Source: a virus
Lineage: Duplodnaviria; Heunggongvirae; Uroviricota; Caudoviricetes
IMG/VR virus record: IMGVR_UViG_2778261139_000002
Coordinates: 22,595 to 86,594 of that record
Direction: 5' to 3' (one strand)
DNA length: 64,000 nucleotides
The notes beneath the pieces are model-generated. The model made no database searches. It was not told the origin of the DNA and saw only the letters and a program-made list of their open reading frames with translations. Shown piece by piece: positions 1,549 through 36,216 of the stretch (the stretch's first letter is position 1; each line of letters starts with the position of its first letter). The translations under genes and the position numbers were made by a program.

Positions 1549-4500
1549 ATGGCCTATTCAGAGGAACAGCGTCCTGAGGCGCAACTCGGTAACCAGAATC
1601 GTAACAGCCTGAACATTCAGCAACCCGGCGAAACTGACAGCTATGAAGCATTTTTCTCTGATCCGAATCGCTGGAAGGATAACAGTACGTCGTTCAGCCT
1701 GGGCGATGTATTGCCAACAATGGGTAAAGGTTTCGCCCAGTCCGTCCGGGGAACAGGGGAAATGGCCCGTGGACTCGGTGATGCGATGATTCAGAGCCCG
1801 GTAAAAACAGGGGTGCGTATTTTAAATGAGTTCAGCCGTATGGGGCTGCCGGGTGTCGCAACTGTGCAGGATATTTTTGCCGGTGGCAGCAGGGGGGCTG
1901 ATGAGGTCATCGATACCCTGCCTGATGGCAAAAACGCGGTTACTGATACTGTCGGTAAAGGTCTGAAGGCAACCGGTAAGGCTGTCAGTGATGGTGCTAA
2001 AGCCTCGGATGAATGGCTGACCGATAATATGTCGCCGGGTGCTGTGCGTGCGCTGAATACGCCAATGAGTGAAGGCTATGATGATCCCGCAGTCTGGCTG
2101 ACGAAGGGGATGAATTTTGTCGGTGCCGTTGCGGCAGATGTGTTTGCTGGCGGTGTGGCTAAAAAGGTGGGTGATGTCACACTGCGAAAAATGCTGACCG
2201 CCGGGCTGGAGAAAAAATACATCGCGGCAGGGATGCAGCCGGAAAGAGCCACGGCACTGGCAGCAGACGCTGTCGATAAAAAAATGCCGGATTTATTCCG
2301 GGCGGGCCTGATCACCCATTCCACAGCCAGTGCACAGGGGCAGAGTGCAATGGCGGCAGCAGATGCTGTTCTTAATGCGGATTACTCTGAGCTGGCGCAG
2401 TCACCGAAATTTCAGCAGACGTTTTTGTCCATTGACGCCGACCCGCAGCACGCACAGCTTACTGATCGCCAGAAAATGGACCTGGCAAAAGAGCGTGTGG
2501 CTGATGAGGTGCGTGCGCAACTGGCAACCGATCCTCAGTTGCTGGCTGTGAATGCCATGGCGGCAAAACTGGGCGATGCTCAGTTGCTTAATCTGGCGAT
2601 GCGGGGCACGGCGAATACCGTTAAAAGCGGCATGATCAGAAACGCCACTGAACAGGGGGCGATTAATGCGGCGCAGGGCGGCTATTCACGCTATCAGGAA
2701 AACATGGCACTGCGTGATACCGCCGGAATGGATGTGTCGCCGTGGGAGGGCGTGGCTGACGCAACGATCGAAGGTGCAGCCCTTGGTGCTGCGATGGGGG
2801 CACCATTCGGTGCGGTTGCCGGATATCGTGGCAGACGTCAGGCGGCAGATGAAGCCGCCATGCGTGAGGCTGAAGTCGTACAGCAGGACGACGCAGCCCC
2901 GCAACCAGAATCTGTTGATCCGGTGGCGCAGCATCGTGAATCCATGCAGGGGATGAATCGCGAGCAGCTTCTGGAGCAGTATGCTGATGCGGATATGGCG
3001 ACAGAGGGTGACGCATCCGCAACTCATCGCCGGGAAGCCGCCAGCCAGCTGTTGAATGAACTGGACGAACAGGCGAAGCGACAGGCTGTGATGAATGAGC
3101 TGAAGGCGAAGCCGCGTTCTGAACTGCTTGAGGAATACCGCAGACTCAGCCAGAAAGAGGGGCGCACCGAGACTGAAGAACAACAGTTTCAGGCAATACG
3201 AGAAGTCATTCGCCCACAACAGGAAGTGACGCCGGAAGCACAGTCACAGTCTGAAAATGCGGAGGATGGTAACGGGAGCATTTACCCGACGGTGCGGTTC
3301 CGGGACCCGAATGAAGTCCGCATTGAAATTAACGGGAATGGTGCGTCCAGACCAGCGGAACGCATTGAAAAGGTGCGCCCGGACAACCGTTATTTCACGG
3401 ATGAGAAAAGCGCCATGGGGAGTGATGTTTTCCGTAATGCCGCCGCCACCGGCCTGAAACCGTCCGTAGTGAAGAAAGGCGAGAATCAGTATGCCGTTGA
3501 AATGGATAATCCTGCGTTCTCTGAAAATGTGGCAACGGAAACCATTAACACCCTGGCTGACGGAGAGCGTATTGCTGATGCTGACCCGATGGAGCAGCCC
3601 GCGTTCATGCGTGACCCGCGATTCCGTGGTTTCACGGGGGATGATACGGAGGTACAGGCCCGCCTTGCCCGTGGCAACGCGCCGACGGCGGAGGAGCTTG
3701 TACGTTCACAGATGGCTGAAGGTGATGCCGGTCCGACAGCACAGGAGTTAACTGAGCGTCCGCGTCTGCCCGCCCCCGGCGATATTCATCCCGGACAGGG
3801 ATATCCGTTACCGGGAGAGGTGGCGCGTACGCCGGATGAGAATCAGGCCGGACGTGGTGGTCGTTTTACCACAACCGGTGAGGTTAAGGGCCAGAGTTTC
3901 CAGAAAGGACGCGGCCCGGCACAGGAAAACGCCGCTGGTCGCCAGGGGGAAATACTGGAGGGCGAAACTGTTCGTCGTGGTCTGCCGTCACCGGATGAGC
4001 AGAGTGTTACCGCCCCGGTACGTGAAGGTCTACCGGCTCCTGACATTACACACAATGTCCGCATGCCTCAGCCTGAACAGCTTCCCCGAACTGTTCGCAA
4101 CTCATTACCTGAGCTGGCACAGCAGGCAGAAGTACGCCGACAGACAGGAGAAGTTCGCGACATCCCGCATGCTGAAACAACAGCACATGAGTCTGAAACA
4201 GTTGCTGCTACTGATGGTGAAGGTGCCGCACGCGGAGGTGTTGCCGGGGGCAAAAAAATTGAAGACTTTGGCGAGGAAATTAAAGGGGCAGCCAAACACC
4301 GTTATGCACAGCTTGCTGAAACACTGGGTAAAACGCTGGAAGACAGGGATTATGCCACGCAGCCGCTGAGCAAACTGTTCCCGAAACCGGACTACGCAAA
4401 ACTGGCGAACGAAGGTGCCGATGCTGACACTCTGGCAATGATAGCTCTGTATCGTAGCGATATTCCGGCGAAGACGAAACACAATACGGCAGGCTGGGGG

Positions 4501-21738: not shown

Positions 21739-22953
21739 ATGAAGATCGTAAAGGCTGAAGTTTTTGTTACCTGTCCGGGGCGTAATTTCGTCACATTAAA
21801 AATCACCACTGAGGACGGTATTACGGGCCTTGGGGATGCCACCCTCAATGGACGTGAGCTTTCCGTGGCCTCTTATTTGCAGGATCACCTTTGTCCGCAG
21901 CTTATTGGTCGCGATGCGCACCGTATCGAAGATATCTGGCAGTTTTTCTATAAAGGTGCTTACTGGCGTCGCGGTCCGGTTACGATGTCGGCCATTTCAG
22001 CGGTTGATATGGCGCTGTGGGATATTAAAGCCAAAGCTGCCAACATGCCGCTTTACCAGTTACTCGGCGGCGCGTCTCGTGAAGGGGTGATGGTTTATTG
22101 CCATACCACCGGTCACAGTATTGATGAAGCTCTGGATGATTATGCCCGTCATCAGGAGCTGGGATTCAAAGCCATCCGCGTGCAGTGCGGAATCCCTGGT
22201 ATGAAAACCACCTACGGCATGTCGAAAGGTAAAGGTCTGGCTTATGAACCCGCAACCAAAGGACAGTGGCCGGAAGAGCAGCTGTGGTCGACGGAGAAAT
22301 ACCTCGATTTCATGCCGAAATTGTTTGACGCGGTACGTAACAAGTTTGGTTTTAATGAACATTTGCTGCATGACATGCACCATCGCTTAACGCCTATTGA
22401 AGCGGCGCGCTTTGGTAAAAGCATTGAAGATTATCGCATGTTCTGGATGGAAGACCCGACGCCTGCAGAAAACCAGGAATGCTTCCGTCTCATTCGCCAA
22501 CATACCGTCACACCCATCGCAGTGGGTGAAGTCTTCAACAGCATCTGGGACTGCAAACAACTGATTGAAGAGCAACTCATCGATTATATCCGCACCACGC
22601 TGACCCATGCAGGCGGAATTACCGGTATGCGCCGGATTGCCGATTTTGCTTCGCTGTATCAGGTACGTACTGGCTCACACGGTCCTTCCGATTTGTCACC
22701 AGTCTGCATGGCTGCAGCGCTGCACTTTGATCTGTGGGTCCCCAATTTCGGTGTCCAGGAATACATGGGTTATTCCGAACAAATGCTCGAAGTCTTCCCG
22801 CACAACTGGACTTTCGATAACGGCTATATGCATCCGGGAGACAAACCGGGTCTTGGCATCGAATTCGATGAAAAGCTGGCGGCGAAATATCCCTATGAAC
22901 CTGCTTATCTACCAGTCGCACGTCTGGAAGATGGCACGCTGTGGAACTGGTAA
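21739..22953 (+). CDS. rspA: Starvation-sensing protein RspA (enolase-superfamily dehydratase)
   Basis: 404 aa from [27 protein letters not shown]; enolase-superfamily composition. Confidence 0.9.
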
Positions 22954-32367: not shown

Positions 32368-32787
32368 GTGGCAAAAGTTTTTACACAAGAAGAGCGGGAA
32401 AAAATTAAAGGGCAGGTGGTGGAACTCGTACGCCAGAGTGGGCGCGAGACGTTACGACAACTGGAAGCTAAAACTGGGGCAACAAGATATCTGATGAGCG
32501 TTCTGGCCAGAGAGCTGGTTGCCAGTGGCGATGTATACAGCTCTGGTTACGGGTTATTCCCGTCTGAACAGGCGCGTAAGGACTGGCAAAACGCCCGCAA
32601 AAAACTCTCGAGGGCAAAGGTGAAGAAACCTGCTGTGGTTGATCCGGACCTTATCTGGTCATTACCTGACGGAGAAATACGTCGCTACGACAGTCGTCTA
32701 AACATAATCTGTCGCGAGTGCCGGAAGGCAAGGAGAAGCAGGCTATTGTTAACATCAAGCTGTAATGTCCCCTTTGAACCATTCTAA
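32368..32787 (+). CDS. Hypothetical replication-region protein; C-terminal codons probably altered by the IS insertion
   Basis: 139-codon ORF whose last ~6 codons lie beyond the putative insertion point at 32768. Confidence 0.45.
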   Translation: MAKVFTQEEREKIKGQVVELVRQSGRETLRQLEAKTGATRYLMSVLARELVASGDVYSSGYGLFPSEQARKDWQNARKKLSRAKVKKPAVVDPDLIWSLPDGEIRRYDSRLNIICRECRKARRSRLLLTSSCNVPFEPF

Positions 32788-34497
32788 AATGTCCCCAGAC
32801 AATTCTCTGGGGGATTTTTCATGATCAAAGAGACTGTTACGATGAGTCATAAGGAACTCCACCGACTTCAGATTATTCAGGAGTCAATTAATCGACATAT
32901 TACTCAGGAACAAGCTGCGGCACGCATTGGCATTTCTATTCGGCAGGTTAAACGTCTGGTGCAACGGTATAGAAATGAAGGGCCTTCTGGTCTGGTTTCC
33001 CACCGACGTGGAAAGCGTCCTAATAATTCCTTTTCTACTGAATTCAGAGCAACAGTAATTTCACTCCTCAAAGGCCGTTACGCTGATTTTGGACCTACGT
33101 TTGCGTGCGAAAAATTGCGCGAGATACACGGTTTATCTTTATCCGTTGAAACTCTCAGAAAGTGGATGATAGAAGAGGGGTTATGGCGTGAACGCCGTCG
33201 TAAAATTGCCCGTATATATCAACGCCGCATGCGACGACCATCTTACGGTGAACTGATCCAGATTGATGGCTCACCTCATGACTGGTTTGAAAATCGAGGC
33301 CCCAGATGTACACTGATCGTTTTCATTGATGATGCCACCAGTGCGTTGATGGCGTTGCGTTTTGTGCCTGCTGAAACAACCCGGGCTTACATGGAAACCC
33401 TCCGGGGTTACCTTAATGATCATGGCGTACCGCTCGCTCTCTACTCTGATAGACACAGTATATTCAGGGTAAATAACCCAGAGCGGGAAGGTGAGCTGAC
33501 CCAGTTCACTCGTGCGATAAAGACACTGGGCATCGAGCCAATCCATGCCAACAGCCCGCAGGCAAAAGGGCGGGTAGAGCGCGCCAATCAGACACTACAG
33601 GACAGGCTGGTCAAAGAAATGCGGCTTCAGAATATCAGTGATATTGAAACAGCAAATGCATGGTTGCCGACCTTTATTGAAGCCTATAACAACCGGTTCT
33701 CTACGTCGCCTCGTACTACTGATAATGCTCATCTTGATGTGCACCATTCTGAAGAGGAACTGGGTTATATCTTCAGCCTACAGGCGAAGCGCGTTCTGTC
33801 TAAAAATCTCACTTTCCAGTACAAAAGCAGTGCGTTTCAGGTACGCAGTGAGGGCCGGGGATATCGACTTAGGCATTCGGTTGTTACTGTATGTGAGAAC
33901 TTTGACGGTGAAATTAACGTTCTGTATGACGGGAAAGCGCTGGGCTGGGAAAAGTATGTTGATGGCCCGGAGCCTATACCACTGGATGATGAAAAGAGTG
34001 TCCATGAACGAGTGGATAATGCCCGTATTGATTTACGCTCAAAATACTATGTTAAATCTAAAGCTGACCATCCCTGGCTTACGCGCCGAACGCAAAGTCA
34101 TCAGCAAGTTAAGCCCCCGAAGTTACCTAAAAAGAAGCCTGATCCCGATAAAATAGATTGAAACCAAGATCGATTCGGTTGAGTGCATATCCATTCATAG
34201 GGTAGATTCTTAAGTCGCGTTTCTGGTGTTCATTTTCGGGTGGTTTGTTACTTGTTTTACCGGGGATATGCCAGAAACGCGCTGAGTCAGTCTGGGCGGT
34301 GCGCGTAATGAGGCGTTATGGTAAATAGCCTATGCTAATGTCCGCTAAGAGCAAGAAGCGGAAGTTGGCAGTTTTGTGGACTGTCCCCACAAAAGTGACT
34401 ACAGAAATAGTTGCAATTCATAATTGATCATGGGTTGTCAGTTAAACTCGTGGCGATTTAAATAGACTAATTGGGAGTGCGTCCATTACTTATATCT
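32769..34497. mobile_element. Putative insertion sequence (~1.7 kb) carrying a single DDE transposase gene; ends approximate
   Basis: Transposase ORF flanked by 8-bp direct repeat TGTAATGT (32761-32768 and 34498-34505); terminal inverted repeats not identified by eye. Confidence 0.4.
32821..34161 (+). CDS. DDE-type transposase/integrase (rve-like core with N-terminal HTH), 446 aa; IS family not assigned
   Basis: N-terminal HTH (QEQAAARIGISIRQVKRLVQRY), central D...D...E-type core (IQIDGSPHDWF..., LYSDRHSIF..., ANSPQAKGRVERANQTLQDRL). Confidence 0.75.
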   Translation: MIKETVTMSHKELHRLQIIQESINRHITQEQAAARIGISIRQVKRLVQRYRNEGPSGLVSHRRGKRPNNSFSTEFRATVISLLKGRYADFGPTFACEKLREIHGLSLSVETLRKWMIEEGLWRERRRKIARIYQRRMRRPSYGELIQIDGSPHDWFENRGPRCTLIVFIDDATSALMALRFVPAETTRAYMETLRGYLNDHGVPLALYSDRHSIFRVNNPEREGELTQFTRAIKTLGIEPIHANSPQAKGRVERANQTLQDRLVKEMRLQNISDIETANAWLPTFIEAYNNRFSTSPRTTDNAHLDVHHSEEELGYIFSLQAKRVLSKNLTFQYKSSAFQVRSEGRGYRLRHSVVTVCENFDGEINVLYDGKALGWEKYVDGPEPIPLDDEKSVHERVDNARIDLRSKYYVKSKADHPWLTRRTQSHQQVKPPKLPKKKPDPDKID

Positions 34498-34597
34498 TGT
34501 AATGTTAACTATCAGAAATGATACAAAGATAATATGTCTTTAAAGAAAAGGCTGATGGCGAAAAGTGGCCCGATGAGGGCCACAATACGGCTGTCAC

Positions 34598-34930
34598 TTA
34601 GACGTAAATATCAATGGTGCCAGCGGTATTTGTATCGTCTTTTTTCTCTTCTTTTTTATCAGGCTGAACTGTCGCGTCTTTATTCTTTTTCTCTGCCTGC
34701 TGCCTTAACAACTGCTCCAGTTGAGCCCTGAGGCTTTCAATTTGCTTCTGTACCAATGCAGCCATTTCTTTTTTCTGCTGTGTCGTCATCCCCTCTTCCG
34801 ATGAGATTTTCCCAAGCTTTTCAGTCAGCACCTGAATTTGTCTTGTGATTTTGGCTATTTCTGATGTTCCTTCCGGGGCGGAGTTGTTTGAAATAACGGT
34901 TGAGGTATTTCCCTGAATTGTGACAGACAT
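34598..34930 (-). CDS. flxA: FlxA (flagellar-regulon protein)
   Basis: 110 aa MSVTIQGNTSTVISNNSAPEG...; sigma-28 promoter upstream. Confidence 0.85.
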   Translation of the reverse strand: MSVTIQGNTSTVISNNSAPEGTSEIAKITRQIQVLTEKLGKISSEEGMTTQQKKEMAALVQKQIESLRAQLEQLLRQQAEKKNKDATVQPDKKEEKKDDTNTAGTIDIYV

Positions 34931-34952
34931 AGATTTCTCCTTTTAAAAAAGC

Positions 34953-34979
34953 ACTATCGGCATGCACAAAAAAATCTTT
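34953..34979 (-). promoter_or_regulatory. Sigma-28 (FliA) promoter of flxA
   Basis: Minus strand reads TAAAGATT-N11-GCCGATAG, matching consensus TAAAGTTT-N11-GCCGATAA. Confidence 0.6.
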
Positions 34980-35132
34980 AATCGTATTTCTTGTGTCATT
35001 AATTGTTTGATGTTCAGATTGTTTTCCTCGCGGGCTGGCGCGCCTCAGAAAGTAAAGCTTGTTGACAGGGGTAAACGTTCGGCAATAATTTTCTGCCGCA
35101 TGCGGGTGTTGCATAAAACGTGCTACGTTCCT

Positions 35133-35438
35133 TTATCGACAGGTCAGGTCACCGCTCACCCGCCGACGAGAAAGCAACACTGACATGCTAAAGCAAAAAA
35201 TAGATGAATAAGTTGAGTTGTGCATATGTAGCCTGACCGTCACAAAGTATATGGTGTCTGTACCAGTAAGATGATGGCCGGACTCTTTAAAAGCGAGCTG
35301 ACCTGCACAATACAGGATGGACTTAGCAATGGCTGCTCCTGGCACAAAGCGGACAGTGATCACCGTTCTTACGACTACTTTCTGACTTCCTTCGTGACTT
35401 GCCCTAAGCATGTTGTAGTGCGATACTTGTAATGACAT
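35133..35438 (-). CDS. ydfV: Hypothetical prophage protein YdfV-like, 101 aa
   Basis: ORF at the position and size of ydfV between flxA and relB; sequence not independently recognised. Confidence 0.5.
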   Translation of the reverse strand: MSLQVSHYNMLRASHEGSQKVVVRTVITVRFVPGAAIAKSILYCAGQLAFKESGHHLTGTDTIYFVTVRLHMHNSTYSSIFCFSMSVLLSRRRVSGDLTCR

Positions 35439-35462
35439 TTGTAATTACAAGAGGTGTAAGAC

Positions 35463-35702
35463 ATGGGTAGCATTAACCTGCGTATTGACGATGAACTTAA
35501 AGCGCGTTCTTACGCCGCGCTTGAAAAAATGGGTGTAACTCCTTCTGAAGCGCTTCGTCTCATGCTCGAGTATATCGCTGACAATGAACGCTTGCCGTTC
35601 AAACAGACACTCCTGAGTGATGAAGATGCTGAACTTGTGGAGATAGTGAAAGAACGGCTTCGTAATCCTAAGCCAGTACGTGTGACGCTGGATGAACTCT
35701 GA
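35463..35702 (+). CDS. relB: Antitoxin RelB
   Basis: 79 aa MGSINLRIDDELKARSYAALEKMGVTPSEALRLMLEYIADNERLPF... recognised. Confidence 0.9.
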   Translation: MGSINLRIDDELKARSYAALEKMGVTPSEALRLMLEYIADNERLPFKQTLLSDEDAELVEIVKERLRNPKPVRVTLDEL

Positions 35703-35989
35703 TGGCGTATTTTCTGGATTTTGACGAGCGGGCACTAAAGGAATGGCGAAAGCTGGGCTCGACGGTACGTGAACAGTTGAAAAAGAAGCTGGTTGAAGTA
35801 CTTGAGTCACCCCGGATTGAAGCAAACAAGCTCCGTGGTATGCCTGATTGTTACAAGATTAAGCTCCGGTCTTCAGGCTATCGCCTTGTATACCAGGTTA
35901 TAGACGAGAAAGTTGTCGTTTTCGTGATTTCTGTTGGGAAAAGAGAACGCTCGGAAGTATATAGCGAGGCGGTCAAACGCATTCTCTGA
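35702..35989 (+). CDS. relE: mRNA interferase toxin RelE
   Basis: 95 aa MAYFLDFDERALKEWRKLGSTVREQLKKKL...; start overlaps relB stop (TGATG). Confidence 0.9.
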   Translation: MAYFLDFDERALKEWRKLGSTVREQLKKKLVEVLESPRIEANKLRGMPDCYKIKLRSSGYRLVYQVIDEKVVVFVISVGKRERSEVYSEAVKRIL

Positions 35990-36060
35990 ACCAAAGCATG
36001 ACATCTCTGTTTCGCACCGAAGGTGACACTTCTGCTTTGCGTTGACAGGAGAAGCAGGCT

Positions 36061-36216
36061 ATGAAGCAGCAAAAGGCGATGTTAATCGCCCTGATCGTCA
36101 TCTGTTTAACCGTCATAGTGACGGCACTGGTAACGAGGAAAGACCTCTGCGAGGTACGAATCCGAACCGGCCAGACGGAGGTCGCTGTCTTCACAGCTTA
36201 CGAACCTGAGGAGTAA
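36061..36216 (+). CDS. hokD: Hok-family membrane toxin HokD (RelF)
   Basis: 51-aa ORF below the ORF-track size cut-off: MKQQKAMLIALIVICLTVIVTALVTRKDLCEVRIRTGQTEVAVFTAYEPEE. Confidence 0.85.
   Translation: MKQQKAMLIALIVICLTVIVTALVTRKDLCEVRIRTGQTEVAVFTAYEPEE

Follow-up and report, generated by a model that had tools for sequence, protein, structure and literature searches.

A probable relBE-bearing transposon of the IS1202 family at the translation start of hokD in a Qin-type prophage

ISEsa1 represents the third subgroup of the IS1202 family and stands on a separate branch of the family tree. It has been described as an element of 1609 bp with 15/22 terminal repeats and a 439-aa transposase, for which neither a target duplication nor a target is known (PMC10132070; Harmer and Hall). 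The relBEF genes (relB-relE-hokD) of the Qin prophage of Escherichia coli K-12 have been described as an operon, and a passage of PMC6379469, citing Ramisetty and Santhosh 2016, states that relBE "integrated" into hokD after plasmid acquisition. No vehicle, ends or duplication for relBE could be found in the searchable literature. Both subjects bear on a stretch of 64,000 nucleotides from a tailed virus of the Caudoviricetes (IMG/VR record IMGVR_UViG_2778261139_000002, positions 22,595 to 86,594), hereafter called the window. In this window, positions 32747-36047 very probably form a single transposon of 3.3 kb, which belongs to the ISEsa1 subgroup of the IS1202 family, inserted at the translation initiation region of hokD and consisting of the same DNA as relBEF.

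The region belongs to a Qin-type prophage with the gene order dicC, ydaT-like, repO, DUF977, transposase, flxA, ydfV, relB, relE, hokD and rem, and the corresponding sequence of E. coli MEI2BO-21 is 100% identical to the window. Within the element, the left end is followed by the transposase gene, an XerC/D site with a hairpin, a cargo slot (here with flxA), relB-relE and the right end. The comparisons presented below establish where the element ends, which target sequence it duplicated, that an empty site exists, that the element is modular and that insertion at hok starts is recurrent, and the structural account of the transposon can be held with high confidence.

Ends, target duplication and empty site

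Boundaries were mapped by comparing the window with 30 related loci (cited by L numbers), including plasmid copies from Klebsiella, Enterobacter and Citrobacter and 18 loci from other genera. All copies start matching at TGTTAAC (32747), in unrelated contexts. The outer ends of the element, TGTTAAC... at 32747 and ...GTTGACA at 36047, belong to 26-bp repeats with 18/26 positions paired, and each of the two ends occurs just once in the window. Both ends are directly abutted by the perfect 15-mer GGAGAAGCAGGCTAT, which stands before TGTTAAC and after ...GCGTTGACA. A second ATGTC motif is found 24-25 nt inward of each end: on the left, ATGTCCCC occurs at 32765 and at 32789 (second copy 32789-32796) with a spacing of 24 nt, and on the right, GTGTCACC and ATGTCATG, read on the reverse complement, have a spacing of 25 nt. 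This repeated inner motif is a putative second transposase-binding motif, as is characteristic of the IS1202 family. Other family traits found here are a homologous transposase (394-507 aa within the family) and the TGT outer terminus, and the 15-bp duplication (13 bp in L012) fits the long-duplication class of the IS1202 family, whose subgroups are defined by duplications of 3-6, 15-18 or 24-29 bp.

An inverted-repeat search confined to 32600-34700 gave weak matches only, as did a local alignment of the left end with 34150-34530, an interval that holds no inverted partner. Two other delimitations were considered and rejected. Many plasmid matches begin at 32719, and the ~27 nt left of TGT were examined as a possible part of the element; they are the hok ribosome-binding region and are far more diverged among copies than the element itself. 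The other was an element ending at the Xer core, with ends mimicking an Xer site; the likeness of the left end to an inverted XerD arm is weak, and the boundaries of the other copies do not fit.

The sequence left of TGT is alike in most copies (77-93% identity over 70-200 nt) and more diverged than the element. In L012, L016, L022, L024 and L025, the match to Rfam RF01794, the sok/hok leader, reaches 81-104 bits and ends exactly at the element's first base. At about 11 distinct hok leaders (<95% identical), the junction reads ...AAGGAGAAGnAGGCyAT/TGTTAAC (slash at the element's start), the element starting just past the hok Shine-Dalgarno and the first two bases, AT(G), of the hok start codon. 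L020 has the element inverted, next to the opposite side of this 15-mer. In the window, as in L011, L012, L032 and L033, a Hok ORF lies 3' of the right end. No dif-like site was seen in the target, which is the hok Shine-Dalgarno/start region. Rfam gave no match in the window region because the hok leader is deleted there, only its last ~28 nt being left.

The empty site is provided by E. coli PEC1011 (L030), where the order is dicA-dicC-ydaT-repO-DUF977-small ORFs-hok leader-hokD-rem. This locus is without transposase, flxA, ydfV and relBE, its hok leader is joined directly to hokD, and 16 nt of it (L030 4164-4179) align to window 32731-46 and also to 36047-62. A search with the flank of the Shigella flexneri copy (L024) retrieved many E. 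coli genomes, including CFT073, in which homology stops exactly at the insertion point and the sequence continues into a hok gene. Among the sampled genomes without the element (matches H259-H279), the part homologous to the window has its start at 36047.

Regarding the transposase gene, a previous sequence-only reading of this stretch had noted the 446-aa ORF between the replication-region ORF and flxA and had taken it for the HTH and DDE-type transposase of a mobile element that arrived by insertion. This is borne out, and flxA is likewise no native phage gene here. In Pfam the product shows N-terminal HTH domains (HTH_28/29/32/23) and the rve_3 integrase core, and it matches NCBIfam NF033594, "ISNCY family transposase", with 464 bits (cut-off 250). 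The motifs IQIDGSPH, LYSDRH and GRVERAN are present in the translation and probably correspond to the DDE triad. The protein, which would have 439 aa if read from the second ATG at 32842, is 99.5% identical to WP_004196353.1 from K. pneumoniae, whose ORF also has 1341 nt and which bears the PGAP name "IS1202-like element ISEsa1 family transposase". Judged by its sequence, it is a full-length IS1202-family transposase of the ISEsa1 type, and it would be active and recognise the hok site itself. An imperfect palindrome (AAAATGTCCCCAGACAA / TTCTCTGGGGGATTTTT, 32786-32819) stops 2 nt 5' of the transposase ATG and, in read-through transcripts, could make the start region inaccessible.

In Leclercia sp. 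EMC7 (L026, 3792-3817), the right end of a relBE-bearing element is followed by GAAGGCTATG, 10 nt of a hok start, and then by a second left end. The second element of this tandem is 72% identical and lies at the hok start regenerated by the first insertion, so that the duplicated target is evidently still a target.

Modules, cargo and related elements

Two blocks are conserved across elements, a left one from 32747 to ~34356/66 and a right one from 35335 to 36047 (Table 1). The left module common to all copies measures 1606-1620 bp. The right module shows 96-99% identity to the terminal 713 bp of the elements in L011 and L012, which lack the stretch 34367-35334 and have other genes between the same two modules. 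The left module is found in 841 plasmid records and the right one in 784; they occur together in every plasmid checked. At least 80% of the element is present in one place in 760 of 5426 E. coli genomes. In the divergent, 72%-identity variant (L007, L022, L026), the left module has 2305 bp, and a RelE/ParE-type toxin-antitoxin pair lies in reverse between the transposase and the cer-like site.

Table 1. Features of the element and its surroundings in the window
Feature	Positions	Strand	Basis or remark
DUF977 ORF, replication region	32368-32787	+	Pfam DUF977; native part to ~32727
Deletion junction	32718-32727		10-nt microhomology GTGCCGGAAG between DUF977 3' region and hok leader hairpin
Target duplication, left copy	32732-32746		GGAGAAGCAGGCTAT; hok Shine-Dalgarno to AT of start codon
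Left terminal inverted repeat	32747-32772	+	TGTTAACATCAAGCTGTAATGTCCCC; start of shared sequence; 18/26 match to right end
Transposase	32821-34161	+	ORF, Pfam, NCBIfam; 446 aa
Putative cer-like Xer site	34170-34326	+	Accessory region, then core; homology to 3.3-kb plasmid
Xer core, left arm	34298-34308		GGTGCGCGTAA
Xer core, central region	34309-34315		TGAGGCG
Xer core, right arm	34316-34326		TTATGGTAAAT
Hairpin GTCCGCT...AGCGGAA	34340-34366	+	Closes conserved left module, which ends ~34352-34366
Cargo slot, variable	34367-35334		flxA and 3' part of ydfV ORF
flxA	34598-34930	-	Within cargo slot
ydfV ORF	35133-35438	-	5' part overlaps relBE promoter region
Right module, conserved	35335-36047	+	relBE promoter region, relB, relE, right repeat
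relB	35463-35702	+	Within right module
relE	35702-35989	+	Within right module
Right terminal repeat	36022-36047	+	GGTGACACTTCTGCTTTGCGTTGACA; reverse complement matches left end 18/26
Target duplication, right copy	36048-36062		GGAGAAGCAGGCTAT; continues into hokD start codon
hokD	36061-36216		

Four other elements (4.5-9.2 kb) with the same ends and relBE and with other cargo are found at other hok genes, each with its own hok-specific duplication. The 6093-bp element of Enterobacter, Superficieibacter and C. farmeri IncHI2 (L011/L023/L032) is flanked by the duplication GGAGAAGAAGGCCAT, of 15 bp as in the window; it carries an IS110-like "ISEsa2 family" element, a cytochrome b and a cation-diffusion transporter, and is followed by a different Hok. 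In Kluyvera (L012), an element of 4487 bp with the 13-bp duplication GATGTTAGCCATG carries two membrane proteins and a LysR regulator, again followed by hok. The 9.2-kb element of an Enterobacter hormaechei IncF plasmid (L033), in which 13/15 duplication positions match, combines an AraC regulator, an MFS transporter and SDR genes, with hok beyond its right end. A form of ~12.8 kb with the ncr nickel cluster is found in pINF118_1 of K. pneumoniae (L031), where TGTATGGGTCC stands 5' of the left end and also in place of the last 11 nt of the right end. The same left module and cargo can be found with different hok leaders (L009 vs L010).

The segment 34170-34326 fits a putative cer-type site with accessory sequences, for which the criterion was an XerC arm, a 6-8-bp central region, an XerD arm and ~180 bp of accessory sequence 5'. 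A 3.3-kb plasmid carries a stretch homologous to the ~170 nt that end at the XerD-type arm, the homology stopping at the arm, and 34296-34329 (34 nt) are 100% identical to a 4.3-kb plasmid; small plasmids carry related cer-like sites. The putative arms were assigned by comparison with the published dif, cer and psi cores. The left arm at 34298 is one base off that of dif (GGTGCGCATAA-TGTATA-TTATGTTAAAT), and the right arm is that of the ColE1 cer core (GGTGCGTACAA-TTAAGGGA-TTATGGTAAAT). The site might act in plasmid multimer resolution or in exchange of the right-hand part of the element, a role proposed with low confidence. Cargo junctions mostly lie 26-40 nt beyond the Xer core. Only the E. 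hormaechei IncF lineage (L006/L033) diverges at the core, 3 nt past the XerD-type arm, and its true right end and hok duplication are found 7.4 kb further on.

Two further candidates regarding the Xer site were discarded. Plasmid fragments matching 34203-34367 had been considered as cer sites free of insertion sequences (IS), and pSC138 turned out to hold an IS26-truncated remnant of the same module. A plasmid of the fish pathogen Edwardsiella piscicida (NZ_CP090964.1, L034), in which flxA-ydfV-relB-relE are kept and the left side stops at window-equivalent 34296, had been considered as an Xer-mediated joint; a Tn3-family transposase gene directly abuts this left side.

Two other IS types recur in the hairpin at the end of the left module. 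One, an IS30-like element (ends TGTGAGTTCAAC), is inserted at 34352/3, the same base in L015, L019 and L026, in both orientations and within two variants of the transposon. The IS110-like "ISEsa2 family" element lies 4 nt further, at 34356/7, in L005, L011, L014, L016, L018, L023, L025 and L032.

Alternative readings and history of the prophage locus

The sequence-only reading had proposed a 1.73-kb IS (32769-34497) in the 3' end of the replication-region ORF, with the octamer TGTAATGT as an 8-bp target-site duplication. The octamer is indeed found at 32761-32768 and again at 34498-34505, with the transposase between, and when the segment that it bounds is removed in silico the joined sequence reads ...TSSCNVNYQK-stop. 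Such an element is nevertheless extremely improbable. The 150 nt preceding the transposase ORF share three exact 8-mer pairs with the 437 nt that follow it, while shuffled sequence gives a mean of 1.0 pairs, with P(>=1) = 0.54, or 0.40 with a 100-nt upstream window; the octamer pair is at chance level. Neither octamer is at an end of the element: the left one occupies positions 15-22 of the left terminal repeat, the shared sequence starting 14 nt before it, and the right one lies in the cargo, 132 nt or more beyond the point where the conserved transposase module stops. The octamer-predicted junction is covered contiguously on both halves in 0/5426 complete E. coli genomes, the best match, MSB1_9I, being a different deletion that joins 32557 to 34315, and intact DUF977 genes have a different end. 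The octamer repeat is fortuitous and the true ends are elsewhere, delimiting an element of 3301 bp that includes flxA, ydfV, relB and relE and whose target is the hokD translation start, not the replication-region ORF. Terminal inverted repeats, which had not been seen by eye, do exist; the right one lies 1.5 kb past the right boundary assumed at that time. A gapped similarity at 34479-34509, near the right octamer, was considered as a right end and dropped, the true one being at 36022-36047.

An arrangement closer to the published ISEsa1 would be a 1.6-kb element (32747 to ~34356, without duplication) standing beside an independently acquired flxA-relBE block, which could have come from a plasmid by recombination, as Ramisetty and Santhosh 2016 proposed for relBE. 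This would agree with the ISfinder listing (1609 bp, 15/22 repeats, no duplication; PMC10132070), with the narrow length range of the left module in all copies and with a left-end-like inverted sequence near the module end in L006, but we consider it quite unlikely. In the window and most copies, the left module is without a right-hand inverted repeat; the left end pairs with nothing but 36022-36047, and all 3.3 kb lie between the two copies of the perfect 15-bp duplication. Four other elements show the same two ends with different cargo and matching duplications, and the 1609-1610-bp limit is the insertion point of the IS110-like ISEsa2-family element, in the commonest plasmid form. Less probable still is an arrival of the element at hokD by homologous recombination with a plasmid hok region instead of transposition. 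While hok loci are common on plasmids and prophages, and recombination within elements does occur, as seen from L009 and L010 with identical left modules and the same cargo despite different hok leaders, both window 15-mers agree in every base with hokD at this locus in the empty-site strain and differ from those flanking plasmid elements. Moreover, both window flanks are prophage sequence up to the duplication.

Several points weigh against the preferred reading of a single, hok-targeting 3.3-kb transposon. The left flank is not hok in L007, L015 and L027, and the right end in pINF118_1 is truncated. In L006, GCTTGGCATAAACACA (4028-4043) is inverted to the left end at 13/16 positions, and a short 1.6-kb form could exist. 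Activity is deduced from the intact ends and the intact ORF. The median number of copies per E. coli genome is one, in every case within this prophage context, so that nothing points to recent movement inside the chromosomes of this species. A PDB sequence search with the transposase gave no match, and its TnsB-like fold is taken from the literature only.

With insertion of one transposon at hokD, the ancestral Qin-type arrangement would have been PEC1011-like. The element would have inserted through a 15-bp staggered cut, duplicating GGAGAAGCAGGCTAT, cutting off the mok/sok leader from the hok coding sequence and placing hok directly 3' of relBE, and the resulting arrangement would be the "relBEF" of E. 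coli K-12. As a consequence of the insertion, hokD would be transcribed from the relBE promoter, in line with a literature statement on such transcription cited in a passage of PMC5120126.

A later 1.99-kb deletion through the microhomology GTGCCGnAAG would have made the DUF977 ORF run into the left end, and it is because of this loss of ~2 kb (small ORFs and sok/hok leader) that the transposase adjoins the DUF977 ORF. The corresponding 1.99 kb of S. flexneri (L024 5729-7717), comprising small ORFs and the sok/hok leader, are missing in the window, and in BLAST comparisons of L024 and L030 with the window the aligned blocks overlap at 32718-32727. A full hok leader is present beside the left end in S. 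flexneri (L024) and in E. coli such as JNE120442. Intact DUF977 genes (E. coli 1409, PEC1011) depart from the window after ...GTGCCGGAAG, and the last 19 codons of the window ORF derive from the ribosome-binding region of hok and from the end of the transposon.

In K-12, a different and larger deletion would have left ydfX' and ydfW as remains. K-12 keeps window-equivalent 33977-36100 with 99.7% identity, including the right repeat and the 15-mer (L002), and its "ydfW" is the in-frame last 49 transposase codons (34012-34161). The K-12 "ydfX", which like ydfW belongs to L002 3723-4185, is an N-terminal YdaT-family stump, deletion-joined to window-equivalent 33977. In the source genome, PGAP labels the transposase as a pseudogene "missing C-terminus" and ydfW is annotated on the last 49 codons of the ORF; this separately annotated gene may be the cause of the pseudogene label. 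The junction in E. coli MSB1_9I (L003 3186-3190) falls inside the Xer core, with a 5-nt microhomology GTTAT; prophages of this family have thus lost the transposase through three different deletions, of which this is the third.

Significance and comparison with described systems

The broader reading is that ISEsa1-type elements, instead of being simple IS, are a previously undescribed, site-specific transposon family homing to hok starts and swapping the sok leader for relBE, with an Xer resolution site and swappable cargo (nickel, cation efflux and other genes) on IncF/IncHI2 plasmids. It also holds that K-12 relBE together with ydfW, flxA and ydfV is a transposon remnant, and that the ISfinder definition of ISEsa1 is a mis-delimitation by an adjacent IS110-like insertion. 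The chances of this whole being right appear about even, and its structural part is well supported. The claim of novelty is made with moderate confidence: in the searchable literature, neither targeting of hok nor an architecture of this kind was found described, which is not proof of novelty. Neither hok nor relB is mentioned in two papers on the IS1202 family, and a 2026 preprint surveying Hok does not mention ISNCY/IS1202, relBE appearing in its reference list only.

If this is correct, relBE would be upstream of hokD because a relBE-bearing transposon targets hok starts, which would explain the origin of a much-studied locus. In K-12, ydfW would be read as a transposase tail, ydfX as a deletion stump and flxA as cargo, with ydfV straddling a module junction. 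The IS1202 subgroup reported without target or duplication would gain both, and a truncated database entry is suggested. The same vehicle would move metal-resistance and other cargo among IncF/IncHI2 plasmids of Klebsiella, Enterobacter, Citrobacter and Salmonella, and with the transposon ends known such cargo can be delimited. A transposon that disables the regulation of one toxin system while installing another would also provide a case for addiction-module competition.

Among described elements, ISEsa1 is matched by the 439-aa ORF read from the second ATG and by the length of the left module up to the ISEsa2 insertion point (1610 vs 1609 bp). Unlike ISEsa1 as listed (by the description in PMC10132070), the elements considered here are units of 3.3-9.2 kb, with a ~12.8-kb form, and have a distant right end, 13-15-bp duplications, relBE, an Xer site, cargo and hok start targeting. 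The published definition of 1609 bp with 15/22 repeats and no duplication does not describe the window element, whose right end is 1.7 kb further on and which has a 15-bp duplication. The ISfinder limits may result from the ISEsa2-type insertion at 34356/7, 1610 bp from the left end; with ISEsa1 delimited there, neither a duplication nor a target would be recognisable.

With the ISAjo2/ISAba32 group, whose transposases are related, the element shares TGT...ACA termini, ~26-bp imperfect repeats, a second inner motif and oriented, site-specific insertion. Tandem insertion at the same target, as in L026, is also known for ISKpn21 (bioRxiv 10.1101/2022.12.17.520857). Unlike here, ISAjo2/ISAba32 target dif-like (pdif/dif) sites, inserting 5 bp (as a group trait, 5-6 bp) away from the XerC arm, and generate a 5-6-bp duplication; the present element is found at hok with 13-15 bp duplicated, and its Xer site is internal, not the target. 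Regarding duplication length, it resembles ISTde1 and the long-duplication IS1202 subgroups (16-17 bp according to Siguier et al.; ">15" according to Harmer and Hall), for which, unlike here, neither target specificity nor relBE/Xer cargo has been reported. Likeness to Tn7, a transposon with a TnsB transposase and attTn7 targeting, is seen in the TGT/ACA ends, the multiple end motifs and the site- and orientation-specific insertion (PMC10132070). Unlike Tn7, which generates a 5-bp duplication at unrelated targets, the element has a single transposase gene and no TnsA/C/D/E.

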